From assembly GCA_963701295.1 (NCBI GenBank), contig OY969585.1, positions 512,827-576,826 on the forward strand: a stretch of DNA of 64,000 bases. Reading direction: 5' to 3'. Positions 3-36,233 of this stretch are shown here, one piece after another. The stretch's first letter is position 1. Every line of letters starts with the position of its first letter. The notes below the pieces were generated by a model. That model was not told where the DNA came from. It saw only the letters and a program-made list of their open reading frames with translations, and did no database searches. The stretch comes from Ignavibacteriota bacterium. Its GTDB lineage: Bacteria; Bacteroidota; Ignavibacteria; UBA10030. The translations under genes and the position numbers were made by a program.

Positions 3-275
3 AAACAAGCTATCACTGTAGAACCGGATAACTCCGCGTACCTTGATACATACGGTTGGATTCTTTTCAAATTGCAGAAGTACGAAGATGCTGCGATGTA
101 CATTGAAAAGTCCATTGCAACCGGAAAGGCCAGTTCTGTTGTTCACGAACACCTCGGCGATGTTTATGAGAAGTTGGGGCAAAAGGAGAAGGCCCTAGAG
201 TTGTGGAAAAAAGCATTCGAGATGGATTCCAAGAACAAAGATGCAAAAGAAAAAATCGCGCGCGGAGCGAAGTGA
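3..275 (+). CDS. TPR-repeat protein, C-terminal part (5' end lies outside the window)
   Basis: The reading frame is open from the window edge. TPR-like helical motif ...EKALELWKKAFEMD... Stop TGA at 273-275. Confidence 0.6.
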   Translation, partial: KQAITVEPDNSAYLDTYGWILFKLQKYEDAAMYIEKSIATGKASSVVHEHLGDVYEKLGQKEKALELWKKAFEMDSKNKDAKEKIARGAK

Positions 276-1048
276 TGGTACAACGTTTTTCTTTCGCATT
301 GGTTCTTTTCTTTCTCTCGTTCATAGGATGCCGAACAACGAGCACGTTGAATCTAAGCAACCGATCTATCACTTCAGCGGAAGTTCAGGAAATCGCTCGT
401 ACACATCACGCACGTATTCAATCCATACAAGGTAAAGGGCGGATATCTGTTGAAACACAGGAGATGGCTCAAAGCGGTGCATTCATCTTAACACTTAGAA
501 AACCTGACTCCGTTCTCATCAATCTTCAAGGACCGTTCGGTATCAAAGTTGGATCAGCACTTGTAACCCGCACGGGATTTTCTTTCTATAATAGTCTAGA
601 GAATCAACTCATCACTGGTTCTACAAGCATAGAAAACCTGAATCGCATCCTTCACGTCCAACTAGATTTTGATGACCTGCTGAACATCTTTTCCGGCGGT
701 GGGTTTCTTGATGACGACCTCCGCTCACCCGACGAAACACGCATTGAAGACGACCAGTTTGTTTTCATCTATACTTCCCACAACTCCAGCCGGCGGTATT
801 GGATCGAACCAACATCTTTAAACATCCAAAGAATCCAGTTTTTGGATCGAAGCGGGAAGGTTACTCTTGAGCAGGCCTTCAATGACTTCGAGAATGTCGA
901 TGGGCTTGCGATGCCGTACGCCATTTGTATCACACAGCCAAAAACGCAGCAAATGCTAACTCTAAAGTATTCCGATATCATGGTGAACGTCAAACAACTT
1001 CAGTTCACCTTTACGATTCCACAGAACGCAGAACGAATTCGCTGGTAA
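275..1048 (+). CDS. Lipoprotein, DUF4292/LolB-like (putative)
   Basis: The ATG overlaps the upstream stop as TGATG. Lipoprotein signal peptide LVLFFLSFIGC. Bacteroidota-type TPR / DUF4292 / M23 gene neighbourhood. Confidence 0.5.
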   Translation: MVQRFSFALVLFFLSFIGCRTTSTLNLSNRSITSAEVQEIARTHHARIQSIQGKGRISVETQEMAQSGAFILTLRKPDSVLINLQGPFGIKVGSALVTRTGFSFYNSLENQLITGSTSIENLNRILHVQLDFDDLLNIFSGGGFLDDDLRSPDETRIEDDQFVFIYTSHNSSRRYWIEPTSLNIQRIQFLDRSGKVTLEQAFNDFENVDGLAMPYAICITQPKTQQMLTLKYSDIMVNVKQLQFTFTIPQNAERIRW

Positions 1049-2307
1049 TGTGCTCTCTGTCTCGCATCTTTCTCTTCATCCTGTCTCTCCTCTTCGTGCT
1101 TCCTGCTACTGCCCAAAAAACGGAACGGGAGATTAAACAGAAGGAAGATGAGCTGCAAAAACTTCGCAGCGACATTCAAGCGTACGAAAAGATATTAAGG
1201 GAGAGCGACAAGAAAGAAAAAGCCACGCTTGAACGCCTCAATAATCTCGAACGGCAGTCCATTCTTATCCGCCAATTGATTCAGAAACTTCGAGAAGAAG
1301 AACTTGGAATGACTGCAGAAATCGACACCGCCAAAACAGCGATTGCCGGATTGGAGGGACAACTTCAGTTTCTGAAATCTCATTATGCCAACTATGTCTG
1401 TTCGGTATATAAACATGGACGTGTGTACGATCTCGAATTACTTTTCTCTTCTCAATCGATCAACCAGCTTTCTATCCGCATTCAATATTTGAAGAAATTT
1501 TCCGAGCAACGCGCTAAAGACCTCAAAGAAATCGACGAAAACAAAGTAATACTGGAACAGAAGAATGAGCAGTTGCAAGTAAAGCTGCAGAGCGAACGAC
1601 AACTTCTGATTGAGAAAACCCGTGAAGAGGAAAACCTCAAGAGAACATTTTCCCGGCGACAAACAGTGCTCAAGAAAATTCGGAAAAATAAAAAAACATA
1701 TCAAAAAGAACTTAACCGCAAGATGGGAGCGTTTCAGCAAATTGAAAAACTTATTGCAGATCTGATTGAGAAAGAACAAATTCGGAAAGAACGTGAGGAA
1801 ACCGAACGTCGGGAACGTGAGATAGCAGAAGCGCGGGAACGCGAACAAGTAAAAAGTATTCCATCGCCCACACTAAAATCGGTTGAACTGAAGACCTCTT
1901 TTGCCTTTGCACAGCAAAGAGGAAAGCTCCGATGGCCAGTTACACATGGATCAGTGCAATCACGCTTTGGCAATCAGATCAATCCTGTTCTGAAAACAGT
2001 CACACAGAACACTGGTATCGACATAGCCACACCAGTTGGTTCCGATGTCCTTGCTGTTGCAGACGGAGAAGTAGCCGTACTGTCTTTCATTCCCGGTTTC
2101 GGTAATGTACTCATCTTAAATCACTACAACGGTTACCGTACAGTATATGCACATCTCTCAGATGTTTCAGTCACAGAGTCACAACGCATCACAGAGGGAA
2201 CGGTCATAGCAAAAAGCGGCGACACTGTAGCAGGTGCTATTCTCCACTTTGAAATTTGGAAAGAACGGGAAAAACAAAATCCTGAATGGTGGTTGGCAAA
2301 ACGTTGA
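1048..2307 (+). CDS. Coiled-coil M23 (LytM) metallopeptidase, EnvC-like murein hydrolase activator
   Basis: Signal peptide. About 250 aa of coiled coil rich in E, K and R. C-terminal M23 motifs GIDIATPVGSDVLAVADGEV ... HLS ... ILHFEIW. Confidence 0.8.
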   Translation: MCSLSRIFLFILSLLFVLPATAQKTEREIKQKEDELQKLRSDIQAYEKILRESDKKEKATLERLNNLERQSILIRQLIQKLREEELGMTAEIDTAKTAIAGLEGQLQFLKSHYANYVCSVYKHGRVYDLELLFSSQSINQLSIRIQYLKKFSEQRAKDLKEIDENKVILEQKNEQLQVKLQSERQLLIEKTREEENLKRTFSRRQTVLKKIRKNKKTYQKELNRKMGAFQQIEKLIADLIEKEQIRKEREETERREREIAEAREREQVKSIPSPTLKSVELKTSFAFAQQRGKLRWPVTHGSVQSRFGNQINPVLKTVTQNTGIDIATPVGSDVLAVADGEVAVLSFIPGFGNVLILNHYNGYRTVYAHLSDVSVTESQRITEGTVIAKSGDTVAGAILHFEIWKEREKQNPEWWLAKR

Positions 2308-2598: not shown

Positions 2599-2819
2599 CA
2601 TATTCTTACATATTTTATAGCATTTTTACAACAATTCCGTTGTATGGTGCATTCAGATTCATTTTTGAGGCAGCATCTATCAGACATCTTCGTCAGTGCC
2701 GCCTTCTTGTTCTTTTGAGTGACTTGGTTTATTGACAATATCTTGGAAATTATCTACCATGAATCGCCGAAGTGTATTTTTGCTAATAGAAATAATAAGC
2801 TCCTCAAAAGGAGAGAGCA

Positions 2820-5519
2820 ATGGCTAAAGGGCCAGAAAATCCAAGAAGTGCTGAGCAGTTAAAAGAAGTCGCGATATTCCTGAAGCAAGCTGATAAACTT
2901 GTACGAGAAGGGAACCACGTTGCTGCATTGGAAGAGATTGCCAAAGCACGCGCACGGGATCCAAGGAATCTGTATGCTTTAGCATATGAGGAACGAGTCC
3001 GTTCTCTTGTCACGGCTCAGAAAGATAAGAAACCGGAGATGGGTTACACTTCTCCGCAACCTACAACACCTCAACCTCTTCCGGCTGCTTTAGAACACAT
3101 CTCGAACCTTGCTATTGTGGAAGCGCAACGTTCTGCTGCCGTTGCAGTAAAGCAAGAACAAGAAGTAATACTTCGCAAAAAGGAGGAAGAAGACCGCCGG
3201 AAGAATGAAGAGCTTCGGCGACAAGCCATCGAATCTAAGATTACCACCTTCCTCACACGCTCAAAGGATTATTTAGAAAAAGGAGACTTCGATCGTGCGC
3301 TGGATGAAATTGCGCGTGCATACCTGCTTGATCCTGCTAATGAAAAAATTCATGCAGCAGAAAACAACATACGGAAGAGGCAAGAAGAGACCCGATTACG
3401 TGATGAACAAGAACGACTTCAGAAACAGCAGGATGACGAACGCAAGCGCCAAGAGCTTCTGAGAGCTCAAGTGGCGCGCATGCAAAAAGAGAAGGAAGAA
3501 AAGCGGCGCAAAGAAGAAGAAGCGCGCAGACAGGCACAACAACAGAAGATTACCCAATATCTTGATCGTGCGGAAGATTTCCTCAATAACGGACATCTTG
3601 ATGATGCGTTAAGTGAATTAGCATTTGTCGTTGTAATAGATCCACTGAATGAAGAAGTCCTGGCATTAGAGCGAAAAATTCGTGATGCCCAAGAACAGGA
3701 ACAAGCAGAACAATTTGAGCAATACCGTAAACGGGAAGAAGAGCAGCGAAAAAAGCGAGAAGCAATCTTTGGAGCGATTCAAAAGCACATCGAAAATGCC
3801 GAACGGCTCGCCGGTCAACAAAAATGGTCGGAAGCGTTGCGAGTTATTACACGGGCATATGTATTGGATCCTGTGAATGATGCATTGCAAGCTTGCGAGA
3901 AACGTATTCAGGCAGCACAAGAAGAGGCATTGGATATTGCTGGAGAGCAACGCCGAGTTCAAGAAGAAACCGTACGCCGCCGACAAGAAGAAGAACTTCG
4001 CCAGCTTGAACAAGCAGAACGTGAACGTGCCGTACTCGGCGAGAGTGCTGAAACCGAAGCGAAACGACGTGCTGACAAGGAGAAGGTTTTCCTCTACCTG
4101 ACCAAGGCCCGTGGGTACCTGACCGATGGAAGATACGAAGATGCTCTCGGTGAAGTCGCGCTTGCATTTATCGTCAATCCGTTTGATGAAGATGTAAAAC
4201 AGATGGAGCAGGAAGTTATTGCGGCACAGGACCAGAAAAAAGCACAAGAAGCAGCTTCAGCGAAAGAGGATTTAGCAGCTATTCCTGCTGACGAGACCGC
4301 TGAACAAATTTCCAATTATATCGCGGAAGCATCTCGTTATGCATCCGAGAGTGAGTTCAGTAAGGCACTCGACGAGGTTGCAAAAGCATTCATGCTTGAT
4401 CCTTTAAATGAGTCAATCCAGAAATTCGAATCTCAACTTCAAAAAGAATTTCACGATTACCAAGAGGAACAGCATAAGATACAACAAGAAGAAGCTCGAG
4501 AAAATGCCATCATCAAACATCAAGCACGGGCAAAGGAATTTCTTAATCGAGAAGCATTTGACGAAGCATTGACAGAAGTTGCAGATGGATATTCCTACGA
4601 CCCAAACAATGCAACACTCATAGCTCTCGAGCAACAGATTCAAGATGCCTATCAACGGTGGCAAGGAAGGCAGGCAGAGGAAGAGAAAAATACTCAAATT
4701 GAAGATTTCCTTTTCAAAGCAAAAGAGTACCTCGCAAAGGAATTATTCGAAGAGGCTCTCAAGACTATCACACAAGCTATCGTATTGGATCCAAAGAGAG
4801 AAGCTTTAAAATCAACAAAAGGGGAAATCGAAAAGGCACAAGAAGCATTCAAGAAACGGAAGCAGTCAGAAGAAAGCAATAAAGTCATCCAAAAACACAT
4901 CTTCCGTGCGAAGGAATGCAGGGTCCTCCGCAGCTACGAAGAAGCCATTGACGAAATCGATCAAGCGCTCACAATCGATTCTTCACGGGAAGATTTACTC
5001 CAGCTTAAAAATCAATTACAACAGGAGTTTACCGAGTGGCAAGCACAGAAAGATCAGAATACCCAACAGACATCGCTCAAACAGCATCTCCGTCAGGCAC
5101 GTGAACATCTTACTAATAAAGTATACGATGAAGCGCTTATGGAGATTGCCCTTGGATTATCGATCGATCCCAAAAACTCAGATCTCGTAGCACTTGAAGA
5201 AGAGGTTATCAAGACCCAGGCAGATGCTGAGCTGGCAGAGAGTGAACTTGCCGCGAAATCATCCGAATCTAGTTTCAAAAATGAGGAACGAGATCAGTTG
5301 ATATGGATTCATTTACGGGCGGCAGACGAACTCCAGAAACAAAATGAATTTGCTCAAGCACTTGATGAATTGGCGAAAGCATATGTCATTGACCCGTTGA
5401 ACAAGGAAGTCAAAAAAGCAGAACTCCGCGTACGGCAAAATGAAATCCGACATGCACAACAGACCGGTCAGACACTAAAATTGATTTACCCAAACGAAAA
5501 ATCAATGGGCGGAAGCTGA
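2820..5519 (+). CDS. Repeat protein: about 11 TPR-like units (A-x-YL-x-G-x-[FY]-[DE]-x-AL-x-E[IV]-x-x-A[YF]-x-[LI]DP-x-N) separated by ER/K-rich single-alpha-helix-like spacers
   Basis: 899-aa ORF with an RBS (AAAGGAGAG). The roughly 35-aa motif is visible about 11 times in the translation. No transmembrane segment or signal peptide. Confidence 0.7.
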   Translation: MAKGPENPRSAEQLKEVAIFLKQADKLVREGNHVAALEEIAKARARDPRNLYALAYEERVRSLVTAQKDKKPEMGYTSPQPTTPQPLPAALEHISNLAIVEAQRSAAVAVKQEQEVILRKKEEEDRRKNEELRRQAIESKITTFLTRSKDYLEKGDFDRALDEIARAYLLDPANEKIHAAENNIRKRQEETRLRDEQERLQKQQDDERKRQELLRAQVARMQKEKEEKRRKEEEARRQAQQQKITQYLDRAEDFLNNGHLDDALSELAFVVVIDPLNEEVLALERKIRDAQEQEQAEQFEQYRKREEEQRKKREAIFGAIQKHIENAERLAGQQKWSEALRVITRAYVLDPVNDALQACEKRIQAAQEEALDIAGEQRRVQEETVRRRQEEELRQLEQAERERAVLGESAETEAKRRADKEKVFLYLTKARGYLTDGRYEDALGEVALAFIVNPFDEDVKQMEQEVIAAQDQKKAQEAASAKEDLAAIPADETAEQISNYIAEASRYASESEFSKALDEVAKAFMLDPLNESIQKFESQLQKEFHDYQEEQHKIQQEEARENAIIKHQARAKEFLNREAFDEALTEVADGYSYDPNNATLIALEQQIQDAYQRWQGRQAEEEKNTQIEDFLFKAKEYLAKELFEEALKTITQAIVLDPKREALKSTKGEIEKAQEAFKKRKQSEESNKVIQKHIFRAKECRVLRSYEEAIDEIDQALTIDSSREDLLQLKNQLQQEFTEWQAQKDQNTQQTSLKQHLRQAREHLTNKVYDEALMEIALGLSIDPKNSDLVALEEEVIKTQADAELAESELAAKSSESSFKNEERDQLIWIHLRAADELQKQNEFAQALDELAKAYVIDPLNKEVKKAELRVRQNEIRHAQQTGQTLKLIYPNEKSMGGS

Positions 5520-5546: not shown

Positions 5547-6866
5547 ATGGAACCACAAGATATATTGACCACTCAACAATTCGTTGTCGATCGATTGCAT
5601 GATATTCAGCGAAAAGCGGAAACCAGTAAGTTCACTGATGCTCTTACGACCATAAAAGAAGTAAAGACGGCGGATTCAAAGAACATATACCTTATCGCCA
5701 TTGAAAAACAGATTGCAAAATTATGTGATAGTTCGTTGCCGGAGGAAAGCCGTTCTGGAATTGTAAGATCACTTCCTTCCATGATTGATCGCGCTATCAG
5801 CGATATCCAACGCCGTGCTTCAGTTCCTAAAGTAGATGATTCACAAAAGGAACAAAAGGAAGCCGCTCTCGAAAAACTAAAAAATCAGTATTTTCAACGT
5901 GCAGATGATTATGTTGAAAAACAAGAATATCAACGCGCACTGGAAGAAATCAGACGTATTTATATTATCGAACCGGGAAGCGTTGTTGCTAAGGAATATG
6001 AACAAAAGATTGAACAACTCGCTGCTTTGCATGCCCGCAACGAAGCAGAAGCAGCAACTTCAGCAGAAATAAAAGGAACTAAAGCAGATATAAAAGAACC
6101 GCAAGTAGAAGTCAAGAAGCCAAAAAAGACAGTTCCAGACATTGAGCCTCCAAAAGAAAAAGTCGCGTTGCAACCTGAAGGAAGTTCAAAGAAATCAAAA
6201 TTATCCATATTGATAGCAGCTGCAGCGGTAGTGATTCTTGCTCTTGGGGCATGGATTTTTTTCTCTCGTAATTCCTCAAGTGGTACACAGACAAATCAAC
6301 AACAGATACAACCACCATCGCCTCGGCAGGATAGCGTGATTATACTTTCACCCACAACTACTTCAACTCCTCAATCCGGAAAGGGATCTGCTCCTATTGC
6401 AGAAACATCGAAACAACCTGCAAAAATTGAAAAGAAACAACCAGAAGTGAAACCTGTTCAACCTGCTGTAGCAACAACGCAACCAACGAATACGAAGCCA
6501 CTAACTGGGCAGACTCCTTCCGCTACGCCAACACAACAACCTGCACAACAACCCAGCACGACAGAAAGCGCCCCAGCACCAATGCCTTTTGTCGCAATCG
6601 AAAATCCACCTGAGATTATTCGTCGTGAGCCCGCAAAGTACCCGGAAATTGCTATCAAGATGGGAATTCAGGGAAGGGTTACAGTTGAAGTCACTGTCGA
6701 TGTTCAAGGGAAACCGATTCAGACGAAAGTAGTGAAAAGTTCGAGCGATGTCTTTAATGATGCAGCTATTGAAGCTGTCATGAAGTATACATTTAAACCT
6801 GCAATGCAATCTACTGGTCCGGTAACCGCAAAAGTATATATACCTATTGATTTCCGCTTAAAGTGA
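5547..6866 (+). CDS. TonB C-terminal-domain protein with a long N-terminal cytoplasmic extension carrying two copies of the same TPR-like unit, one TM helix and a Pro/Thr/Gln-rich linker
   Basis: TM helix LSILIAAAAVVILALGAWIFF. P/T/Q-rich spacer. C-terminal TonB-type domain ...IIRREPAKYPEIAIKMGIQGRVTVEVTVD...KVYIPIDFRL. Confidence 0.7.
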   Translation: MEPQDILTTQQFVVDRLHDIQRKAETSKFTDALTTIKEVKTADSKNIYLIAIEKQIAKLCDSSLPEESRSGIVRSLPSMIDRAISDIQRRASVPKVDDSQKEQKEAALEKLKNQYFQRADDYVEKQEYQRALEEIRRIYIIEPGSVVAKEYEQKIEQLAALHARNEAEAATSAEIKGTKADIKEPQVEVKKPKKTVPDIEPPKEKVALQPEGSSKKSKLSILIAAAAVVILALGAWIFFSRNSSSGTQTNQQQIQPPSPRQDSVIILSPTTTSTPQSGKGSAPIAETSKQPAKIEKKQPEVKPVQPAVATTQPTNTKPLTGQTPSATPTQQPAQQPSTTESAPAPMPFVAIENPPEIIRREPAKYPEIAIKMGIQGRVTVEVTVDVQGKPIQTKVVKSSSDVFNDAAIEAVMKYTFKPAMQSTGPVTAKVYIPIDFRLK

Positions 6867-6875
6867 AAATAAAAA

Positions 6876-6910
6876 GGCTTCTTCATAATCAAGAAGAAGT
6901 CTTTTTATTT
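6876..6910. terminator. Bidirectional rho-independent terminator between the convergent TonB-like and RND genes
   Basis: Hairpin GGCTTCTTC-ataatcaa-GAAGAAGTC followed by TTTTTATTT. Preceded by an A-run that serves the opposite strand. Confidence 0.6.
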
Positions 6911-6935
6911 AATCTTGTTGTGACTCTATCGATGC

Positions 6936-10155: not shown

Positions 10156-10659
10156 TTACTTTCGGATAATCACTGGAGCATTATCGCTTAAATTATTCTG
10201 CCCGTTCATAACCACCAATTCACCTTCCTGCAAGCCATTCAAGATTTCGATGTTCGTACCAGCCTCTTTTCCCGTTACAACAGAACGAAGTTTCGCTCTA
10301 TCATTCTCAACAATGTAAATTTTTGCATCCTTTACACTTCCGATAATAGATTCACGAGGTATCACAATCAGATTACCGGAAGACTTTGGCATGAACATGA
10401 CCCGTCCAAACATACCGGCTTTTAATTGCTGCTTGGAATTTTTAAGCACTACTTCCACCGGATATGTATGACCTTCATCCCCCTTCGAGGAAATACTAAA
10501 GATTGAACCTGTGAACACTGCATTGGGGAATACATCCGTTGTTACATCAACTTTTTCACCAACCTTTAAACGAATAACATCTTTTTCCGCAACATTCACT
10601 TTTACTTTTAAGCGGGAAATATCGACCACATTAGCCATCGAGAGTCGCCTGCGGTGCAC
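10156..10659 (-). CDS. RND membrane fusion protein (HlyD/AcrA family), C-terminal part; the gene is split by a frameshift
   Basis: Beta-barrel and membrane-proximal-domain motifs VVDISRLKVKVNVAEKDV. The reading frame overlaps the upstream fragment. Confidence 0.6.
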   Translation of the reverse strand: MHRRRLSMANVVDISRLKVKVNVAEKDVIRLKVGEKVDVTTDVFPNAVFTGSIFSISSKGDEGHTYPVEVVLKNSKQQLKAGMFGRVMFMPKSSGNLIVIPRESIIGSVKDAKIYIVENDRAKLRSVVTGKEAGTNIEILNGLQEGELVVMNGQNNLSDNAPVIIRK

Positions 10660-11221
10660 CCATCACCATCGAACCGATATTCACATTGCGGGCAGTTACA
10701 ATCCCAGAAATAGGAGTCGTAATCTTTGTATCGCTTAATTGACGCCGTGCGACAATGTACTGCGATTCGGCCGATTGATAACTCCATCGTGCCTGCTCAA
10801 TTTGAGAATCAGAAATAGATCCCTCTTTATAGAGTGCCTCATATCGTTCAAGATCCTTTTTTGCCTTTTCGTACGTCACATCTGCTGCTTTATACGCGGC
10901 TTCCTTAAGTTCGCTGTCAACTTCGACAAGCACTGAACCTGCTGGTTTATAATCACCAACCTCAGCATCCACTTTTACCACACGTCCTGATGTTTCGGAA
11001 ATCACCGCCACATCATTATACGCCACAATCGTGCCAACCTGCGAAAAGCTATCAGTCACATCTTTCCTTGTCGCTGCTATCACGGAGACAGAATAGGATG
11101 TTGCAATCGTCGTGGTTGCACTATTTTGCCCGTCACTTTTCGCTTTGTTACACGAATAGAAGCCAAATACGAGAGCAACTAGCACCAGTCCTAAAGTGAT
11201 ATATTTTATTGTTGTATTCAT
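10631..11221 (-). CDS. RND membrane fusion protein (HlyD/AcrA family), N-terminal part (lipoprotein signal, coiled-coil hairpin); ends in stop ...GAPQATLDG*
   Basis: Lipoprotein signal peptide MNTTIKYITLGLVLVALVFGFYSC. The sequence continues in another frame as ...ANVVDISRLKV. A 1-nt indel lies near 10640. Confidence 0.6.
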   Translation of the reverse strand: MNTTIKYITLGLVLVALVFGFYSCNKAKSDGQNSATTTIATSYSVSVIAATRKDVTDSFSQVGTIVAYNDVAVISETSGRVVKVDAEVGDYKPAGSVLVEVDSELKEAAYKAADVTYEKAKKDLERYEALYKEGSISDSQIEQARWSYQSAESQYIVARRQLSDTKITTPISGIVTARNVNIGSMVMGAPQATLDG

Positions 11222-11346
11222 TGTTCTTATCCTTTTAGTAATAATTTTATAATTACTCACCTATTGCTTTGGAAAGCTGCGCGATGGCAAGTTCGTAATC
11301 GACTAATGATTGCGTTAAATTTAATTTTGCCTGAAGTAATGCTACT

Positions 11347-16130: not shown

Positions 16131-16205
16131 GGTGGCCATAGTTCAGTTGGTTAGAACGCCAGGTTGTGGCCCTGGAGGTCGTGGGTTCAAATCCCACTGG
16201 TCACC
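16131..16205 (+). tRNA. tRNA-His (anticodon GUG) with an extra 5' G(-1)
   Basis: Acceptor stem GTGGCCA pairs with TGGTCAC. Anticodon loop TTGTGGC. The G(-1) pairs with C73. Confidence 0.85.
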
Positions 16206-16315
16206 CTAAGTGCATTGAGTGATTTGCGGTTTGATGAGTATATGATTGCGTGTATAGGTGACTTTTCTTTTTCTTCCAATCATTAAATCGTCAATCAGAA
16301 AATCTACAATGACTC

Positions 16316-16388
16316 GCCCCTATCGTCTAGAGGCCTAGGACACGGGCTTTTCAAGCCTGGAACACGAGTTCGAATCTCGTTGGGGGCA
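16316..16388 (+). tRNA. tRNA-Glu (anticodon UUC)
   Basis: Acceptor stem GCCCCTA pairs with TGGGGGC. Anticodon loop TTTTCAA. T-loop GTTCGAATC. Confidence 0.85.
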
Positions 16389-16457
16389 CAAGGGTTTTAG
16401 CATTTTCCTCTCCTAATTGCTAACACTTCTGCTAACACTTTTCTGCAGGAGTGCACT

Positions 16458-17537
16458 ATGGCTTCCTTGATTAAACGTTCTAACGGTATCTACTATTTCA
16501 TTACTCAATTCAATGGTGTGCGTCGTTGGATTAGTACGGGTGAGAAAACTCGTGAGAAAGCTCTCAAGAGAATCCCTTCCCTCAGCTTCGAACACAGACA
16601 CAAAAACAAAATTCCCAATCTTTCTGACTACATAGAGCAATTTCTCAGCATCGGATGCAATAGCTATCGAGAAGGAACGAAAGAAATTTATGAAAGAGCA
16701 ATGTATTCCTTTCTCGATTGCGTGGGTAATAAAAAGCTCTCTCTCATTAGCATAAAAGATATTGATAAGTACAGACAAGCAAAGCTTCAAATTATTCTCC
16801 CTACTACTATGAATATTTATCTTCGAACTCTCAAATCCGCATTTAATAAAGCAGTTCAATGGGAGCTCTTGCAGCATAATCCTTTTTCAAGACTACCACT
16901 CTGTCCTGTTCCTCAACGAGCTCCACAGTTCTTCACTCTCGATCATTTTAAAGCATTGACAAAAACGATCAAGGAACCATGGCTGTTGCAGGCCATCCAT
17001 CTTGCAGTCTTTACCGGAATGCGAAGATCCGAGATAGTAAATTTGCAATGGAAGCATATTGATTTTTCAAGGGAGTTAATTATTGTCGAATCGGATGCAA
17101 ATTTTCAAACAAAGACCGGAAAACGACGGCTTCTTCCGATGAACTCTATAGTATTTCAAATGCTACGGTCTATGTTTATCACAAGAACAGGAGAATATGT
17201 CATTATGTTGAATGGAAAGAAGTTGCGAGACATTTGGCTTTCAAGGAGATTTAAACAATACATCTGCAAAATGAATATTGACATTTCCATGCATTTTCAC
17301 ATTCTTCGTCACACTTTCGGCAGTTGGCTAGCACAGGCCGGAGTGCCTATATACGAAATACAAGCACTTATGGGTCATTCAAACATAAGGGTTACAATGT
17401 CGTATAGCCACTTAATACCGAAACAATTGAGAGCGAGCGTTGAGATGCTTGTACCGTTTGATCAATTAATTCATAACGGACAACCCTGCGAGGACATTGA
17501 TCCTCGCAAGACTTCTTCGCAAGCCATCGTTTTCTAG
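16458..17537 (+). CDS. Tyrosine recombinase / phage-type integrase
   Basis: C-terminal catalytic motifs ...HILRHTFGSWLAQAG...LMGHSNIRVTMSYSHL. Located 70 bp downstream of tRNA-Glu. Confidence 0.85.
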   Translation: MASLIKRSNGIYYFITQFNGVRRWISTGEKTREKALKRIPSLSFEHRHKNKIPNLSDYIEQFLSIGCNSYREGTKEIYERAMYSFLDCVGNKKLSLISIKDIDKYRQAKLQIILPTTMNIYLRTLKSAFNKAVQWELLQHNPFSRLPLCPVPQRAPQFFTLDHFKALTKTIKEPWLLQAIHLAVFTGMRRSEIVNLQWKHIDFSRELIIVESDANFQTKTGKRRLLPMNSIVFQMLRSMFITRTGEYVIMLNGKKLRDIWLSRRFKQYICKMNIDISMHFHILRHTFGSWLAQAGVPIYEIQALMGHSNIRVTMSYSHLIPKQLRASVEMLVPFDQLIHNGQPCEDIDPRKTSSQAIVF

Positions 17538-18488
17538 GTGGCAATAGATTTCGGTAGTGCTCAAATTTTTATGGCCCAGTAGCTTTTGAACTTCATAGAT
17601 GGGGGTTTGTGCTTGTGTAAGCCAAGAAGCACAGGTATCTCTGAGATTATGAAAATGATAATGTTCTGACAAACCACTTTTGTGGACATATTGTTTAAAA
17701 ACTCTTGTGATATAATGAGGTTTCAGTGCTTTTTCCTCTTTATTGACAAACACATATCCCTCTGTTTTCCTCAGCGTAAGTAGCATTTTTTTGATAAATG
17801 GATGCATCGGTATTGTTCGGGGATGCATACCTTTTACACGAAACGTACCTCTATTACGTATTCGGATCAGAGAATTTTGAAAATCTAGATCTTCCCACAT
17901 TAAATTACAAATTTCACCTCTTCTCATACCTTCATGAACTGCGATTATAATAATATTTCGGAATTGAATATCATTTACGCTATCCAATAATGTTTTAAAG
18001 TCTGTTTTTGTAAAATATGTTGGCTCCTTATCAGGGACTGGTATTTCCTTGCAGCGCTGGGCGGGATTATCTGATACTAATCTCCAGTTCACTCCCAAAT
18101 TAAATGCTGCCTGAATAGTGCGAAGATAAATATTAACTGTCACAGGCTTCACATCTGCTAAACATTTTTGTTTAAACTTTTCGATTAACAAGGGCGTCAC
18201 TCCAATTAACGCTATATCTCCCAGGGCATGGATTAATTTATCAAAGCTCCGTTGATAGATCGATAGAGTACCAGAAGATAAATTTGTCGATACATATTGA
18301 CAGACCAATTTTTGAAAGGCACTTAAGGTCATAAGTTTTGGTCTTTCAAGACTACTCGAGATAGTTTCGGCGATTCTTTTGGCTTCTTCTTGATCCCGGG
18401 AACGTGTAGAACGCCATCTACGATTTCCTTCAAAATCGTAAAATGCAATATAAAAGATCCCATTATTCCGTTTAAAGAGAGAAGCCAT
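17466..18488 (-). CDS. Tyrosine recombinase / integrase, a paralogue of the upstream gene; its 3' end overlaps that gene by 72 nt
   Basis: Motifs HNLRDTCASWL...LLGHKNLSTTEIYCHL. The N-terminus MASLFKRNNGIFY resembles MASLIKRSNGIYY of the neighbouring gene. Confidence 0.85.
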   Translation of the reverse strand: MASLFKRNNGIFYIAFYDFEGNRRWRSTRSRDQEEAKRIAETISSSLERPKLMTLSAFQKLVCQYVSTNLSSGTLSIYQRSFDKLIHALGDIALIGVTPLLIEKFKQKCLADVKPVTVNIYLRTIQAAFNLGVNWRLVSDNPAQRCKEIPVPDKEPTYFTKTDFKTLLDSVNDIQFRNIIIIAVHEGMRRGEICNLMWEDLDFQNSLIRIRNRGTFRVKGMHPRTIPMHPFIKKMLLTLRKTEGYVFVNKEEKALKPHYITRVFKQYVHKSGLSEHYHFHNLRDTCASWLTQAQTPIYEVQKLLGHKNLSTTEIYCHLENDGLRRSLARINVLAGLSVMN

Positions 18489-18560
18489 TGCTTTTATCTA
18501 ACCTTTACAATTACCCAACTTCATAACACTCTATTTTTGAAATTATGTGCATACGCTTAA

Positions 18561-19316
18561 TCATTTCTTTTTAGGGAAATGTTTATTTAAATATTCCTCA
18601 TCATTTTCAAACAACGATGCATTAATTTCTGCTCTTCGATTTATTTGATCAAACTCTTCATCAGAGATGCCTATCATTTGTGCTATGGAATAATTCAGTC
18701 TTTCCGATTCACTTTTAAAAACCCTTGGCGATTTGACCGAACCAGTAGGTGCTTGAATTGATGTAGGATCACTACTCCCTATTCCATATTGTTTTTTTAA
18801 CCTCTGAAATTCGGAATGAAAACCTAATTCCCAAGCTGGTCCCGAAATCATAACGCTTGCTGGTGAAGAAGGTTTAGGTTTGCGTGTGCTATTATATACC
18901 AGCCTATGGCAATCTCTGCATCCCAGCGTTTGCTCGCCCGGAGGCAGATAAAGAATACTCACTGTTTGGTTGCAAGTATTACCGTTTTCCCTCTCAAAAG
19001 GACAAGTTAGATAGAGACGTTCACCTCCACGCGATAATTTAGAAGGATAGGTCAATATTGAATAATCAAATTCATCAGTTTTTGGACTGTTTCCAGAATA
19101 AGCCGGATACGTTACATCGATATAAAACCTCCCTTGCCAATCCACAGTTGTTCTCCCCCAAATACATATTCTACCTACTTCACGATCTGTAGGAGGGTTC
19201 GTTATTTGAGTGATTTCACCAATATTTTCAGAAAATAAACCTGAGTCACAGAGTTCTCTAATGTTCAGCGTCCAGCAATCTTCAACTCTAAATTTTGAAT
19301 CATATTTTCCAGTCAT
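18561..19316 (-). CDS. Hypothetical protein with Cys/His clusters (island cargo)
   Basis: 251-aa ORF. No recognisable family. CxxC...CxxC-type pairs. Confidence 0.4.
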   Translation of the reverse strand: MTGKYDSKFRVEDCWTLNIRELCDSGLFSENIGEITQITNPPTDREVGRICIWGRTTVDWQGRFYIDVTYPAYSGNSPKTDEFDYSILTYPSKLSRGGERLYLTCPFERENGNTCNQTVSILYLPPGEQTLGCRDCHRLVYNSTRKPKPSSPASVMISGPAWELGFHSEFQRLKKQYGIGSSDPTSIQAPTGSVKSPRVFKSESERLNYSIAQMIGISDEEFDQINRRAEINASLFENDEEYLNKHFPKKK

Positions 19317-19368
19317 CTTACCTCCTAAATCTTTCTAAATTTTCAATAGAAATCATTTTTTAACCATT

Positions 19369-19920
19369 TTACTCTAAGAGCAAATTAGACTCAGAATTGT
19401 TCGTTTCCCCTGGTCTGGTTTCAGATATAACCGCTGACTGGGTCGAGTCTGTTTCTTCAGACTGTTTACCAGATTCCCTCCATTCACTTTCCACACGTTT
19501 TTTCACTTCTTGCAGATCCGTCAAATTTTGCCTGCAAAAATCAATGTGGCAGAGAATGAACTGCTTTGGAGTTATACCTACTACTTTTGCGATCGATCCT
19601 AAATTGCCAGGCCAGTACATTCTATTTCGTCGATCCTCTGGTCTCTGGGATATAAGCCATTGACTTATAATTGGGAACAATGTGAAATCACTAGCATCTA
19701 ATGAATAATCGCGATAATGTAATTTTAGTTTAGATTTCTCCATGTCAATTCGAAATAGATTTTCAAGCGTCGATAGTTTCAAGAGTCGAATTTTATGTCT
19801 TTTTTTCATCCTTTTTTTGGCCGCTGGTTTAACCGAAATGGCATCTCCTGATTCCTTGAAAATTTCCAATAATTGCACATTACTCATTTTATTCTCCTCT
19901 GTTTTTTCTATTGGTCTCAT
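19369..19920 (-). CDS. Hypothetical protein (island cargo)
   Basis: 183-aa ORF. The start may be at the internal Met (MSNVQLLEIF). Confidence 0.35.
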   Translation of the reverse strand: MRPIEKTEENKMSNVQLLEIFKESGDAISVKPAAKKRMKKRHKIRLLKLSTLENLFRIDMEKSKLKLHYRDYSLDASDFTLFPIISQWLISQRPEDRRNRMYWPGNLGSIAKVVGITPKQFILCHIDFCRQNLTDLQEVKKRVESEWRESGKQSEETDSTQSAVISETRPGETNNSESNLLLE

Positions 19921-20140
19921 TAATTTTCGTAATTGACATCATTTATATTCCTCATATGTCCAATATTTAGCCTTCCAGCAGAAAAAAGCAACTTTTTAAG
20001 TACATATAATTACACTTAATTATTTGAGTAATAGCCGTAATTCGCATGCTTTAGCAAATATTTTCCTAAATCTTCTTAATATTATCTCATATCCCCTTGT
20101 CATATTGGACAAAACGACTATTTCGATAAAGCCACATGGT

Positions 20141-20677
20141 TTATTTTACTGAACAAAACTCATGTTTTAATACATCGGACTTTCTTTTTGCTAGCCTTAG
20201 AGCAAGCTTCATGTATTTATCTGACTCACAATTATTAGGACATATGTATTTAATTTCTCGATCTTGAGTAATTTCAGCCAAACACTGCATATAAATTTTA
20301 ATTTCTGGATCGTTCCCTTGACCATTTTTCTTCCACCCACAATTATTTCTCCAGTACTTGCAATTTGCCAGATATTCCTTGATATCATGATCGGGACAAA
20401 TAACGATTATCGGTATGCTATAGTCAGTAATCGAACTCATAGCATGCGAACATGCTTCTAAAAGTGCTTTTTCTCGAGATCCATTAAATATGTACCCAGA
20501 ATTATTCAATTCCCTGTCAATTCCTACAATTACTAATCCCCATACCCATATATATTTTCCATTTTGTATGTTTTTTCTCAAGGCTGAAAGATAAATCATC
20601 TTTTTAAAAGGTCGATTTTCCTCGTTATAATTTTTAGTTTCTTTCAATTTTATAATCACTTTAATCCCCCTCCCCAT
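20141..20677 (-). CDS. Hypothetical cysteine-rich protein (island cargo)
   Basis: 178-aa ORF with many Cys residues. No recognisable family. Confidence 0.35.
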   Translation of the reverse strand: MGRGIKVIIKLKETKNYNEENRPFKKMIYLSALRKNIQNGKYIWVWGLVIVGIDRELNNSGYIFNGSREKALLEACSHAMSSITDYSIPIIVICPDHDIKEYLANCKYWRNNCGWKKNGQGNDPEIKIYMQCLAEITQDREIKYICPNNCESDKYMKLALRLAKRKSDVLKHEFCSVK

Positions 20678-21475
20678 TTTATCTAGTACAACACAAGTTT
20701 AATTTGATTTTTTTAATTCAGTATATTGTTGTTTGATTTGTCATTATTACTTCAGGTACAACAGTGTATACATGCAAACATCTTCGCACTTCGTGCGATT
20801 GCGAACACCTCGCAAATAACGCTCGTGTTCGCAAATTATGTATTTTTCTTCTTTCATTTTATCCTACCTTAGGGCGGATTTCAGCCAGCCCTTTTTTCTC
20901 AAGGGCTATTTTTCTATTAAACTCAAATTGTTACGTCTTATGAAAAGAAGTTATGAGCTTCTCTCTAGTTTTATCCTACCTCAGGTATGGATTCTTTACC
21001 ACATAGATCAAACTCTTTTAAGAAGATTGAATAGGCCGGGGTGCCCGTCTGCCTATGCGGATAACTTTCATATGTGAATTTATCCATTTTATGTGGTCCC
21101 AGTCCCGGTCTATAAACGACCCAGGAAGCACCGCTGGCTACTACTTGGATTTCCTTTTCAGGAAGAGCAATCCGTTAGAATCTTTTCGACATCGACATTG
21201 AGTTATTTTTTTCATTTAATTGCAATCTTATTTTGTTTAACATTTTCTGTTATTGTTGTCAATTTATAAAAGCTATATATAATGTTGATGAACATATTTT
21301 GTTCTTCTATACTATATATAGCCTTGAACAAAATTTTAGCAACTGAAATGAGTGTAAAAAGAGACGCCCATATAGGAACTTCCTATATGGAAAATCGAAG
21401 GAAAAATCAGTTTATGAAGAGATGGTTTGGTAGAAAAAACAATTCAGAACAATATAATGAACGACACCTCAATGA

Positions 21476-22111
21476 TCAGTCAGACAAGATTTCTACTTCT
21501 CCCGAAATAAAATCATCCAGCTTTATTTCCCTCTGACCTGAATTCTCAGTGTAAACTAAAGTCGGAACAACAATCACTATTTTCATAGGTTTGATACAGA
21601 GCTTCCTCCTGAATATTCTATTTTTCGCACCTAATCTTTTATCTTTCCTAAACGCTGTAACTAGGTTCATTAGATTCAAGAAATCTCTTATTTTTTTGTC
21701 AGATAGTGAATTGTCATTTTCAAGAATATTAATCTGACCATGTCTGAGTAATGCATAACACAGTGCTACTCGCAACAATTGGTTCCACATTTCATTAGTG
21801 ATTTTATCTGATAGACTATATCGCCATTTAGCCTGCTCATTATATTTTTTATCTATTTCAACATGTTCGAAACCCTCTGATGGCGCATCTCTATTATAAA
21901 TCCATCGACTACGCATTTTATCAATAAGGGTACTAATATCATCGTATGAGCACTTATGCTTGACAAGCCTGTCATTCATTTTTTCCATAATATCACTTGC
22001 AAAGATTCCTTTTTTTCTAATTTTCATATTTAGTTTATCTTCAACAAGGATTGCTAATAACTGCAAGGCTCGATATTCCATCTCTAATTCTTCAGTAGCC
22101 ATTTCACCCAT
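21476..22111 (-). CDS. Hypothetical protein (island cargo)
   Basis: 211-aa ORF with AT-rich flanks. Confidence 0.35.
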   Translation of the reverse strand: MGEMATEELEMEYRALQLLAILVEDKLNMKIRKKGIFASDIMEKMNDRLVKHKCSYDDISTLIDKMRSRWIYNRDAPSEGFEHVEIDKKYNEQAKWRYSLSDKITNEMWNQLLRVALCYALLRHGQINILENDNSLSDKKIRDFLNLMNLVTAFRKDKRLGAKNRIFRRKLCIKPMKIVIVVPTLVYTENSGQREIKLDDFISGEVEILSD

Positions 22112-23051: not shown

Positions 23052-23071
23052 AGCCTGCCCTTCGCCGGGAG

Positions 23072-23890
23072 TTGATCCAGGAGGTGCAGGCAATCTATGG
23101 AGCAAGTGAACGGCGGGCTTTGAGAGTAATGAAATGGCCACGGTCAACACATCGCCAAAAAAGCGCTCGAGATCCGCAACTGCCATTACGGTTGCGCTTG
23201 CGGGAGTTAGCAGCAACACGCATAGCATACGGATATCGTCGGCTTCATGTGCTTTTAAGACGTGAAGGTTGGCAGATCAACCACAAAAGAGTGTATAGGC
23301 TATATCGTATGGAAGGCCTGTCAATACGTAAGAAAATACCTCGACGAAGAGTGGCTTGTGTAAAGCGGGAGATACGCCCGGCGGCATTGACGAGGAATGA
23401 GTGTTGGAGTATGGACTTTGTCTCTGATCAACTATTTGACAATAGACGTCTAAGAGTGCTGGTGATCTTAGAGAATTACACCAGGCAATGTTTAGCACTT
23501 GAAGTAAATGCAAAGATACGAGGTATCGATGTGGCAACGACGTTAGAACAAATCACACGTGAACATGGATTTCCGAAACAGATCAAGGTGGACAATGGAC
23601 CGGAATTTATCTCGAAGGATTTAGATCGATGGGCGTACTGGAATCATGTTGAATTGGATTTTAGTCGTCCGGGCAGACCATCGGACAATGCACTGGTGGA
23701 AGCGTTCAACTCTCGTTTTAGACAAGAGTGTTTAAATCAGCATTGGTTCCTGTCGCTGGAAGATGCAAAAGAGAAACTTTCTGCCTGGCGAAACGAATAC
23801 AATACCCAGAGGCCGCACAGCTCTTTAGGTTATAGAACACCGTTGGAAGGTAGGATGAAAACAAGCAATGCTGAAGCCTTTGCAGCATAA
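23072..23890 (+). CDS. IS3 transposase OrfB (DDE/rve integrase core); the OrfAB fusion arises by -1 frameshift
   Basis: rve-domain motifs ...WSMDFVSD...NGPEF...; the frame is open upstream back to the slippery site. Confidence 0.85.
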   Translation: MIQEVQAIYGASERRALRVMKWPRSTHRQKSARDPQLPLRLRLRELAATRIAYGYRRLHVLLRREGWQINHKRVYRLYRMEGLSIRKKIPRRRVACVKREIRPAALTRNECWSMDFVSDQLFDNRRLRVLVILENYTRQCLALEVNAKIRGIDVATTLEQITREHGFPKQIKVDNGPEFISKDLDRWAYWNHVELDFSRPGRPSDNALVEAFNSRFRQECLNQHWFLSLEDAKEKLSAWRNEYNTQRPHSSLGYRTPLEGRMKTSNAEAFAA

Positions 23891-32842: not shown

Positions 32843-33181
32843 CTAATATATAGAATCAGAAAGAAATTCAACTCCATCATCCAACTTGATAGATGCAATG
32901 GCACGGATAATTTTCTCAAGTTCCTTACGCTCGCTTGAAACATTGACACCAAGAAAATCAATATCCTTAGTGGGCCTTGCTTTCTCAATATTGTAAGCGA
33001 GAAGAAGGAAGCCGCCTTTTAACACAAACTTCTTTACATACTTTGATGCTGCAAGACGTGCAAGAAAGCGCTCCTGAATGTATCGCAGTAATAGAAAATT
33101 AAAATCAAGGTTTTCTTTTTCAGAAATATTTTTAAGGCGCGCTAGAACTGATGCGGAAACATTGGTAGTCGGTTTTTTCAT
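32843..33181 (-). CDS. AbiEii/AbiGii-family nucleotidyltransferase toxin, truncated (N-terminal about 112 aa only)
   Basis: N-terminal AbiEii motif. Full-length proteins are about 280-300 aa. The ORF ends at a cluster of palindromes. Confidence 0.55.
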   Translation of the reverse strand: MKKPTTNVSASVLARLKNISEKENLDFNFLLLRYIQERFLARLAASKYVKKFVLKGGFLLLAYNIEKARPTKDIDFLGVNVSSERKELEKIIRAIASIKLDDGVEFLSDSIY

Positions 33182-33771
33182 CCCATAATCACCTTCACAT
33201 ATTGAGAGATGATACCTTTTACTCGACAAATTTCTGCGAACTTCATCAGTTTATTGAGATCACGATTGCGTTTTCGGAGATACGTTTTGAGACCCTCCAT
33301 TACGATATCTTCACCGAGTTTGTTCCTGAACCGGAAACAATCACAGATAGTTTTTTCAACACCGTAGAGTCGAATATGACCAGCTTTGGTTTCGTGGTGT
33401 TCAATCCCTGTTTTGTACTGAGCTTCGGAAAAATAGAAAGACTCCGTCGGTGGATGAGAAAGCTTGATCGGTTTATTCGCTCTTGGAATGGCATACGTTA
33501 TAACTGTAGGAACGAATGTCGTAAGCTCGTGAAACGCGAGCGCTGAAGAAAGGCTGATAACTGCTTTCGGGATAGCAAGACAGACTTCTACGAGTCCGCT
33601 CGATTCACCAAGCTCAAGCTGCGAAAGCCGATATAGGCCAGCTTTCACCTTTACGATGTCGCCTCCATCAACTGCCTTCAGGATTTCCCTTGTGTGGATA
33701 CCGCTCGCTTTCATTTCCTTCATTCGAGCGTAACCCTTATGGGCTTTGAGATATTTTAGTATTTGATTCAT
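33178..33771 (-). CDS. AbiEi-family antitoxin/transcriptional regulator (type IV TA system)
   Basis: MNQILKYLKAHKGYARMKEMKASGIHTREILKAVDGGDIVKVKAGLYRL is the AbiEi N-terminal winged HTH. Its stop overlaps the toxin start. Confidence 0.65.
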   Translation of the reverse strand: MNQILKYLKAHKGYARMKEMKASGIHTREILKAVDGGDIVKVKAGLYRLSQLELGESSGLVEVCLAIPKAVISLSSALAFHELTTFVPTVITYAIPRANKPIKLSHPPTESFYFSEAQYKTGIEHHETKAGHIRLYGVEKTICDCFRFRNKLGEDIVMEGLKTYLRKRNRDLNKLMKFAEICRVKGIISQYVKVIMG

Positions 33772-34188
33772 ACGGATGGTTCTAATTAGCTGCACATAAT
33801 ATAAACGTGCAGTAGAAAAGAAGCAAGAGGCTGGCAAAGATTTAATCAAAAACGCCTGACGCATTACCAGACGCCAGTCGTTTAGGGAGTCTAACTATGC
33901 GCTGTCGGGGAGACGGCACGGGAATATTGTATGAAATGTTCTGGTTTTTGTCAATTAATATTTTAGATGAAAAATAAAGACCCCGGCACATTTATAAGTA
34001 CCGGGGCTCAAGGGGAAGGGGGTAAAGAACCACTGCGCGCCAACACAGTGATGCTACTGAAAAATAGCCGTTGATATCTTCGGGGGATTGATATCAATTT
34101 ACCCCCTTTTTAATTTCCGATTCATAAACTTTTTATTGCTTGGCATAATGATATTTACTAACAAAGATTTAAATAGTCAATTTCTCGT

Positions 34189-34542: not shown

Positions 34543-34686
34543 TTTGATTTACAACTTAACGAATGGCAACTTTACTGACAGATCAATTCTTCTTCGCCTG
34601 CTTCTCCATCCCTCGATACCAGTCATGTCGAGCTTGAGCGCCTGGTTATACCGCTTGCTTTAAATAACCGCAAGAGAAGAAAAAGA

Positions 34687-35008: not shown

Positions 35009-35010
35009 AA

Positions 35011-35998: not shown

Positions 35999-36233
35999 AA
36001 TATCATTCCTCCTTTTATTTGTTTTTTTCCCGATTTGTCCACGAACGAATATGACAGTTAATTTATATAATTTGCGCAGGATATACAAATTTGGTTTGCG
36101 GGCAATACGATCTCTGAGTCGAATGGATATCATTTCTCCCCTTTATTAATATTTACATCACAATTCGGCCATATTGTTATTTGTCGCAAAGAGGCGATCT
36201 CCAGCTGTCAATACACATGACCCTGGATTGTTG

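Follow-up and report, generated by a model that had tools for sequence, protein, structure and literature searches.

The stretch analysed here, referred to as the window, comprises 64,000 nucleotides of contig OY969585.1 (assembly GCA_963701295.1) from an Ignavibacteriota bacterium. Near its start, a single open reading frame (ORF) at 2820..5519 encodes an all-helical protein of 899 amino acids (aa), named the rod here, which has neither a signal peptide nor a transmembrane (TM) helix. Its composition includes 15% Glu, 12.5% Ala, 9.5% Gln, 8.5% Lys and 8% Arg. The rod was found to be built of spaced single units resembling tetratricopeptide repeats (TPRs), and the distances between its core units were found to be conserved across its homologs. 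A TonB-like protein of 439 aa is encoded from 27 nt past the rod gene (5547..6866). Both this gene and the tRNA-Pro gene upstream of the rod gene (2524-2599) had been pointed out in an earlier note on this DNA and were located. All coordinates given for the two genes and their control signals are on the forward strand. An AAGGAG-like ribosome-binding site lies 6-13 nt 5' of the ATG of the rod gene, and a promoter-like site, TTGACA-17-TACCAT (2732..2760), lies 5' of the two-gene unit and matches the consensus at 10 of 12 positions, although the promoter type of Ignavibacteria themselves may differ. No terminator was found between the rod gene and the TonB-like gene, and a hairpin terminator at 6867..6910 is common to the TonB-like gene and a convergent RND gene. 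The 27-nt gap and the presence of a terminator only after the TonB-like gene suggest that the two genes are co-transcribed.

The repeat units of the rod were anchored on their D-P-x-N turns, and a hidden Markov model (HMM) was built from them. The count of about 11 copies given earlier proved to be exact, with unit starts at aa 15, 139, 242, 318, 421, 495, 562, 625, 688, 751 and 826, and both peptides quoted at that time were located in the protein (aa 144-177 and aa 188-244). The length given for the motif, about 35 aa, was too short, as the unit HMM showed a conserved unit of about 46 aa with the consensus kkIqkhLarAkeyltegefdeALdEiAkAyvlDPlNedllalEeri. Each unit consists of helices A and B, the D-P-x-N turn and the first, amphipathic part of a third helix. 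Scored with the unit HMM, all 11 units gave E = 1e-16 to 1e-21, which is far beyond chance, and in the six-frame translation of the whole window the HMM matched only two copies outside the rod gene, both of them in the next gene. The pattern [LI]DP-x-N had been said to close every unit; this does not hold for unit 1 (RDPRN), unit 5 (VNPFD), unit 7 (YDPNN), unit 8 (LDPKR) and unit 9 (IDSSR).

The units fall into several regions along the protein. Unit 1 (aa 15-60, 2862..2999), identified by the unit HMM and by conservation, is the head unit with the variant motif DPRNLYALAYEE and is the best-conserved unit of the rod (top-residue frequency 0.82). Units 2-5 form a conserved core (aa 139-466, 3234..4217) made of two copies of a 179-aa super-repeat (unit-57-unit-30), the halves of which are 34% identical (E=1e-22). 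Units 6-10 form a C-terminal periodic array (4302..5207) with spacings of 67-63-63-63 aa, and the last unit matched by the unit HMM, unit 11, occupies aa 826-871 (5295..5432). A tail follows which is predicted to be disordered and which contains the motif L-K-L-I-Y (aa 886-890, 5475..5489), recognised by its conservation. A tandem-repeat search found no relevant repeat at DNA level; the repeats are therefore old and diverged.

Database searches gave 221 homologs of the rod at E<=1e-3 in a 90%-clustered database and approximately 125 clusters at E<=1e-30 in an exhaustive search of a 50%-clustered database. All named sources were metagenome-assembled genomes (MAGs) of Ignavibacteria or Bacteroidota, and the closest matches (96% identity) came from fen and peat MAGs. 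The genome scan found the gene in MAGs only and in no cultured strain. The earlier impression that the protein belongs to no described family was borne out, since no curated family covers the rod. Pfam gave only the generic TPR_2 (41.9 bits, cut-off 27) and TPR_14 (32.5 bits, cut-off 23.5), which identifies the TPR motif in the protein; a scan of the rod against NCBIfam gave no family match; and a sequence search of the PDB with the rod profile found only designed consensus TPRs (E=3e-10), one of which matched across its last repeat together with the capping ('solvating') helix. Homologs are labelled 'TPR repeat protein' or 'trichohyalin' in the databases. Behind these labels and 'energy transducer TonB' stands a distinct family without a name, which comprises approximately 125 clusters at 50% identity.

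The unit spacing was mapped onto 120 homologs with 35-97% identity to the rod. Spacings 2-3, 3-4 and 4-5 were exactly 103-76-103 in all of the 120 homologs that contain the region, down to 35% identity, and the same spacing was kept in 75 of 85 rod ORFs from the 62 loci described below. Over aa 139-466 an alignment of 40 homologs contained no gap or insertion. From spacing 6-7 onwards the values were usually 67, 63 and 63, and in the C-terminal half whole 63-aa modules were gained or lost between lineages, so that proteins have 8-11 units in total. The spacings that include disorder predicted by AlphaFold2 varied widely among homologs; spacing 1-2 ranged from 111 to 150 aa and spacing 5-6 from ~60 to ~230 aa. 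When 39 core sequences were chosen for exact 103-76-103 spacing and less than 70% mutual identity (minimum pairwise 25%), their spacers were only ~31% identical in pairwise comparison, yet E/R/K still made up ~50% and hydrophobic residues ~14% of them, and Pro and Gly were nearly absent. The idea of a ruler or scaffold, raised in the earlier note, is thus strongly supported by the exactness with which spacer length is conserved. A helical-phase relation between the spacings (103-67 = 36 residues = 10 turns) was considered and dropped, since the spacing variants of distant homologs obey no such rule.

The tail is also conserved. The motif [LIVMR][KRQ][LIVM][IVL][YF] was found in 111 of the 120 homologs, in the form (G)LKL[IV]Y, and residues L886 and Y890 are invariant. 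The peptide resembles a linear docking motif of the short kind.

In the distant tail of the profile search, arrays of single TPR-like units with comparable spacing were also seen in giant proteins from other lineages (P0225, P0227, P0274, P0257 and P0292). The arrays have periods of 59-60 aa, for example in P0225 (1601 aa) and P0227 (1474 aa). A Planctomycetota protein of 2938 aa has a long TPR array together with two Ser/Thr kinase domains, a TM helix and ankyrin repeats. A module of one TPR plus an extended helix may thus be more widespread than the rod family.

The full-length AlphaFold2 model of the rod, made with an alignment of 40 homologs, was entirely helical with a mean predicted local distance difference test (pLDDT) value of 80.7 and a predicted template modelling (pTM) score of 0.30. 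The model repeats one pattern, in which a long helix of 42-82 aa is followed by a 3-residue loop, a helix of 12-14 residues, the DPxN turn and the next long helix. It follows from this pattern that one and the same helix caps unit i and provides helix A of unit i+1. Continuous helices were predicted at aa 354-435, 531-576, 598-639, 661-702 and 724-765, and in units 6-10 long helices (42-46 aa) alternate with short ones (12-14 aa). Low-confidence breaks were limited to aa 70-88, 219-230, 480-490 and 808-819 and to the C-terminal tail, where pLDDT was below 50. A fragment model of aa 490-800 reached a pLDDT of 93.0 and a pTM of 0.55 and gave the same pattern as the full-length model.

Foldseek matched the rod models to TPR proteins in the PDB locally (E ~1e-6 to 1e-4), with TM-scores of 0.05-0.21 and root-mean-square deviations (rmsd) of 40-70 A; no spectrin or coiled-coil structure was among the matches. 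The predicted fold thus appears TPR-like locally, extended globally and unlike any solved solenoid. A TPR superhelix has three or more adjacent repeats, whereas the rod presents single hairpins 63-124 aa apart in extended models, and the earlier view that the protein is not a standard TPR solenoid is upheld. Its description as isolated hairpins on spacers fits the core but not the C-terminal half, where the third helix runs into the next helix A with ~17 residues between. Summing the helix lengths of the model gives an estimated contour length of ~60 nm, if the three predicted hinges are straight.

The spacers between consecutive units are 78, 57, 30, 57, 28, 21, 17, 17, 17 and 29 aa long. Stretches of 30-50 residues made of E, R, K and Q had been described between the units, and this applies to the three spacers of 57, 30 and 57 aa but not to the remaining ones. 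The three are spacer 2-3 (aa 185-241, 57 aa, 3372..3542), which AlphaFold2 predicted as helical, confidence being low at a break (aa 219-230); spacer 3-4 (aa 288-317, 30 aa, 3681..3770), which lies within a continuous helix at aa 278-332; and spacer 4-5 (aa 364-420, 57 aa, 3909..4079), which lies within a continuous helix of 82 residues at aa 354-435. Their E+R+K content is 46-56%, or 58-75% with Q, and the helix pLDDT across them ranged from 45 to 93. The end of spacer 1-2 is also charged. The other spacers (17-29 aa) are rich in Q and E and have conserved aromatic residues, or else include segments for which disorder is predicted.

The spacers were compared with known single alpha helices (SAHs) and coiled coils in a home-made composition test, which combined an i/i+4 salt-bridge score with the hydrophobic occupancy of heptad a/d positions in the best register. 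The coiled-coil controls were GCN4, tropomyosin and the coiled coil of a neighbouring M23 peptidase. The salt-bridge score of the long spacers was 0.30-0.39, compared with 0.67-1.08 for the SAH controls and 0.07-0.14 for the coiled-coil controls, and their a/d occupancy was 0.29-0.41, compared with 0.00-0.29 and 0.52-0.85, respectively. Across all rod spacers the best-register a/d occupancy was 0.25-0.50, which lies below the coiled-coil controls and does not indicate a two-stranded coiled coil. The test thus places the three long spacers between classic SAHs and coiled coils. They look more like single alpha helices, as proposed earlier, than like coiled coils, and may behave as monomeric SAHs. 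The short Q/E-rich spacers of the C-terminal half, with their conserved aromatic residues, do not resemble SAHs. A Fourier analysis of hydrophobicity and conservation along the spacers gave mixed peaks at 3.4-3.9 and ~7 residues without a clear seam and was not relied on.

The TonB-like protein is related to the rod itself, a point missed in the earlier note, as was the fact that this neighbour is an obligate genetic partner. Its cytoplasmic N-domain (aa 1-165, 5547..6041) contains two rod-type units at aa 25-56 and aa 114-155, which the unit HMM matched at E=2e-6 and 6e-10. In BLASTP the N-domain aligned with rod aa 1-193 at E=8e-11, covering the first ~175 residues of the rod with unit 1 (N-x-Y-x-x-A-x-E variant), a conserved helix and unit 2. 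Judged from this alignment, the N-domain is a paralogue of the rod head, and its first unit, 1', is paralogous to unit 1 of the rod. The N-domain is conserved across lineages. The remainder of the protein shows the layout of the TonB family. A single TM helix preceded by a Lys-rich stretch was placed by hydropathy windows at approximately aa 217-239 (6195..6263), a Pro/Thr/Gln-rich linker spans aa 240-360, and a C-terminal TonB_C domain occupies aa 363-438 (6633..6860). The last was recognised by Pfam TonB_C at E=8e-22 (77.9 bits, gathering cut-off 24.6) and by TIGR01352 at E=1.2e-17.

Searches for homologs of the N-domain with the single sequence and with a profile gave 20-23 short unnamed proteins and no full-length fusions, probably due to a word-index limit. 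The distribution of architectures was therefore taken from six-frame scans of 62 loci, namely 11 metagenome contigs and 51 species-level genomes. The lineages in this survey are only 30-46% identical to each other, and an N-domain gene was found directly 3' of the rod gene on the same strand in nearly all of the loci, while the remaining neighbours differ. Three types of loci were distinguished. In type A, to which the window belongs, the rod is followed by a protein with N-domain, TM helix and TonB_C. In type B, a short rod paralog and a long rod are followed by a free-standing N-domain of 160 aa; the two rods are 34% identical to each other and have the same core spacing, and the short one is devoid of the (G)LKL[IV]Y tail peptide. 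In type C, an N-domain-TM protein is followed by a fusion of rod, TM helix, linker and TonB_C (L059/L060, L061, P0295 and several other representatives of 50% clusters). The fusion P0295 carries a TonB_C domain scoring 35.6 bits, above the cut-off, and is annotated by NCBI as 'energy transducer TonB'. The TM helix of the fusions is flanked by a basic patch on the side that faces the rod. Because, in addition, the rod itself is free of signal peptides and TM helices, it is placed in the cytoplasm.

Two kinds of genes recurred directly 5' of the rod genes. In two deep lineages, a gene for a TonB-dependent receptor (CarboxypepD_reg-Plug-barrel) lies directly 5' of the rod gene (L006-L008, 5033-7477; L011, 610-3228; L048, 11-2722), and in L006-L008 it is preceded by an ECF sigma and FecR pair. 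In two other lineages, with rods of only 39% mutual identity, a receiver-domain (Response_reg) gene in the same orientation directly precedes the rod gene or genes (L004, L029, L032, L040 and L054; L009, 7545-7937). The L004 locus has histidine kinases upstream and a PDZ-GAF-SpoIIE phosphatase downstream.

The reading preferred here, with confidence that is about even, is that the rod is a length-defined cytoplasmic scaffold docked to a TonB-type anchor in uncultured Ignavibacteria. The protein is a cytoplasmic helical rod, probably of monomer type, in which each of the 11 units is a knot of 1.5 TPRs. Because the capping helix continues unbroken into helix A of the next unit, small knots of three helices each follow one another along the chain in a staggered manner. 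ER/K-rich, SAH-like helices with fixed lengths of 57, 30 and 57 aa keep the knots of the core (units 2-5) apart, and in the C-terminal half a knot recurs every 63 aa. The rod would act as the cytoplasmic arm of the TonB-type anchor, docking through the pairing of its head with the N-domain, through the conserved C-terminal LKLIY peptide, or through both. It would thereby offer TPR-like binding knots at set distances, and these may position or cluster envelope-spanning TonB units or link them to a cytoplasmic partner.

Several observations weigh against this reading. The SAH score of the long spacers is intermediate and below that of classic SAHs. Each 57-aa spacer contains a small conserved hydrophobic patch, spacer 4-5 has a conserved Gly in addition, and AlphaFold2 confidence drops at these points; the 57-aa spacers could thus kink or pack against something. 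The extended shape is deduced indirectly from secondary structure, low pTM and the Foldseek rmsd of predicted models. The core spacing drifts by 1-8 residues in distant representatives (e.g., 102-80-104, 99-76-103 and 103-69-103). The type B partner has neither a TM helix nor TonB_C and lies amid two-component signalling genes, so that the pairing of rod and N-domain does not depend on a covalent link to TonB. As read from its sequence, the TM helix of the partner (LSILIAAAAVVILALGAWIFF) contains no His and no SHLS-type motif, and neither a MotA_ExbB nor an ExbD gene turned up in the window or in the six neighbourhoods examined, although such genes may sit elsewhere in the genome. Coupling to a proton-driven motor is accordingly conjectural, and the mode by which the rod docks on its anchor is a guess.

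An alternative that was considered unlikely is a filament-forming or dimeric cytoskeletal rod of the coiled-coil-rich-protein or spectrin type, which would build a sub-membrane lattice with the TonB protein as just one of its anchors. The charged helices of different chains would then associate in parallel or antiparallel fashion, and the knots would hold the rods together like a zip. The topology of three-helix knots on continuous helices is indeed spectrin-like, the hydrophobic patch of each 57-aa spacer could serve such pairing, and oligomers are compatible with the monomer prediction. The coexistence of two paralogs with the same core spacing in type B loci also suits this explanation, as does the palindromic order 103-76-103, which would keep all units in register in an antiparallel dimer. 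However, the a/d occupancy of the long spacers (0.29-0.41) is well under that of the coiled-coil controls (0.52-0.85), and the Foldseek matches included neither spectrin nor coiled-coil structures. The palindrome is more simply explained by tandem duplication of the 179-aa super-repeat, after which the next spacing is again ~74-76; for this reason an antiparallel dimer, first read from the palindromic spacing, was set back to this alternative.

Slightly less probable is a signalling scaffold that is not specific to TonB, the knots of which would recruit several copies of client proteins such as receiver-domain proteins, with the TonB fusion as one membrane route among others. TPR units are generic peptide-binding modules, and the receiver gene directly 5' of the rod genes in two lineages as divergent as 39% identity (L004-type and L009), the histidine kinases and SpoIIE-type phosphatase of the L004 locus, and the type B partners without TonB_C would all be expected of such a scaffold. 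No receiver gene was found in the window or in most type A neighbourhoods, though, and the only universal neighbour is the N-domain partner, with TonB_C linked to the pair of rod and N-domain in most lineages and fused to the rod in several.

An ordinary adaptor with a TPR superhelix, in which the charged stretches are low-complexity filler, is contradicted by the evidence and very improbable. It would account for the Pfam TPR_2 (41.9 bits) and TPR_14 (32.5 bits) scores above their cut-offs and for the names 'TPR repeat protein' and 'trichohyalin' given to homologs, but the protein has no adjacent TPR hairpins, its units are spaced by 63-124 aa instead of the 34 aa of a solenoid, the TM-scores to TPR solenoids are 0.05-0.21, and, unlike true filler, the charged stretches have an invariant length and a conserved composition. 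A periplasm-spanning or secreted ruler, a role suggested in the earlier note and fitting an elongated protein that adjoins a TonB-like gene, is hardly tenable, because the rod has neither an N-terminal signal peptide nor a TM helix, and the fusions place it N-terminal to a single TM helix, with the basic patch on its side and a TonB_C domain that must be periplasmic, i.e., on the cytoplasmic side of a TonB-type anchor.

The scaffold docked to a TonB-type anchor was also compared with known systems. The closest functional analogue of the rod and TonB pair would be GltI with GltG/GltJ of Myxococcus. The Agl-Glt gliding machinery of Myxococcus xanthus includes GltI, GltG and GltJ (PMC11761067, PMC3169522), and GltI is a cytoplasmic TPR scaffold of ~1100 A that is predicted to bind several GltG/GltJ cytoplasmic N-domains (PMC11761067). 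Both systems combine a very long cytoplasmic TPR-containing protein with single-pass TonB_C-type proteins that have unusual cytoplasmic N-domains, and GltI is predicted to give spaced docking sites for these N-domains and so to cluster envelope complexes. However, there is no detectable homology (NCBIfam gliding_GltJ E=0.15, 11.1 bits, cut-off 450), the N-domains of GltG/GltJ are FHA and ZnR/GYF domains and not TPR-like units, and GltI consists of contiguous TPR arrays rather than single hairpins on helices of fixed length. No AglRQS, Glt or other motility gene was found near the rod gene, in the window or in the neighbourhoods examined.

Canonical TPR proteins (Pfam clan CL0020; OGT, APC/C subunits, P58IPK and designed CTPRs) share with the rod units the order of helix A, helix B and a following helix, and the units match Pfam TPR models, designed consensus TPRs and, at the 3Di level, TPR proteins. 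They differ in that the rod units are never adjacent and form no superhelix, with helix A of the next repeat stretched to 42-82 residues and TM-scores of at most 0.21. Spectrin-repeat rods, including bacterial EzrA, are likewise elongated chains, with the closing helix of each knot running on as the opening helix of the following one, whereas the rod knots are made of a 14-residue helix B and the ends of long helices instead of three equal helices of ~30 residues. No match to the spectrin repeat (a three-helix bundle of ~106 aa) was found in Pfam, the PDB sequence search or Foldseek, and the connectivity alone is similar.

ER/K-rich SAH domains occur in myosin VI and X, INCENP and the KER region of CAF-1 and have been described as rigid connectors, spacers and constant-force springs (PMC4183817, PMC5347031, PMC10335832). 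The core spacers resemble them in having 30-57 aa with ~50% E/R/K, almost no Pro or Gly and no heptad seam, and in lying between folded modules. They differ in the density of salt bridges (0.30-0.39 versus 0.67-1.08 in the controls) and in the hydrophobic patch of each 57-aa spacer. To our knowledge, the invariant spacer length across the rod family is a tighter length constraint than is known for described SAH domains.

The partner follows the TonB family in its order of TM helix, Pro-rich linker and TonB_C. According to PMC8262864, TonB proteins 'in general lack a cytoplasmic domain'. A few other TonB homologs are known to have cytoplasmic N-terminal extensions, such as Anabaena SjdR and the M56-TonB fusions in Bacteroides. 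The extension of the partner differs from these in being a 165-aa TPR-like domain of two units with a dedicated soluble paralog-partner of 899 aa, and the partner also departs from the family in its TM helix without His and in the lack of adjacent exbBD genes.

The building blocks of the system, i.e., the TPR hairpin, the SAH-like helix and TonB_C, are all known. No description of their combination (single TPR knots on helices of frozen length, a paralogous two-unit N-domain on TonB, and obligate pairing of the two genes with fusion in some lineages) was found in the literature and family libraries. Given a conserved TonB protein with a cytoplasmic domain and a dedicated rod of ~900 aa that is sometimes fused to it, certain bacteria may organise or regulate their TonB-type transducers from the cytoplasmic side. 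A more far-reaching possibility, which is unlikely at present, is a new trans-envelope assembly of rod, N-domain protein and TonB_C anchor in which a TonB-type periplasmic transducer is coupled mechanically or spatially to a cytoplasmic ruler of ~60 nm, with the SAH segments as exact spacers or springs. If this were true, the TonB machinery would have a cytoplasmic counterpart of a kind not known from model organisms, and the assembly might organise arrays of outer-membrane transporters or a structure resembling focal adhesions in Ignavibacteria. The family also provides a natural test case for the concept of a molecular ruler, in which helix length is frozen as the sequence drifts, and a possible template for designed rigid spacers.

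The surroundings of the two genes in the window included further features. Upstream of the tRNA-Pro gene lies a conserved envelope-related block (203-2307) with a DUF4292/LolB-like lipoprotein gene (203..1048) and a gene for an EnvC-like M23 peptidase with a long N-terminal coiled coil (925..2307). In locus L001 (locus coordinates 5838-9486) a conventional TPR protein of 534 aa precedes this block. The block is syntenic in close relatives only and is therefore not regarded as part of the rod system. Downstream, the gene for the membrane-fusion protein of the RND efflux operon appears as two overlapping ORFs on the reverse strand (10156..10659 and 10631..11260), where the syntenic locus L001 has a single gene of 350 aa; this could be a frameshift or a sequencing error.

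A tRNA-His gene (16132-16206) and a tRNA-Glu gene (16316-16389) are directly followed by two tyrosine integrase genes (16458..17537, forward strand; 17466..18488, reverse strand), several ORFs without a Pfam match on the reverse strand (18561..22111) and an rve-type IS transposase gene on the forward strand (23072..23890). The region 16132-23890 looks like a mobile element integrated at tRNA-Glu. Finally, a possible defence island was noted on the reverse strand at 33178-47980. Its genes encode an AbiEi-like regulator (33178..33864), a protein of 1441 aa with C-terminal WD40 propellers (36234..40559), a protein of 539 aa without a Pfam match (40823..42442), a TIR_2-domain protein of 917 aa (42606..45359) and a protein of 863 aa with a C-terminal RyR domain (45389..47980).

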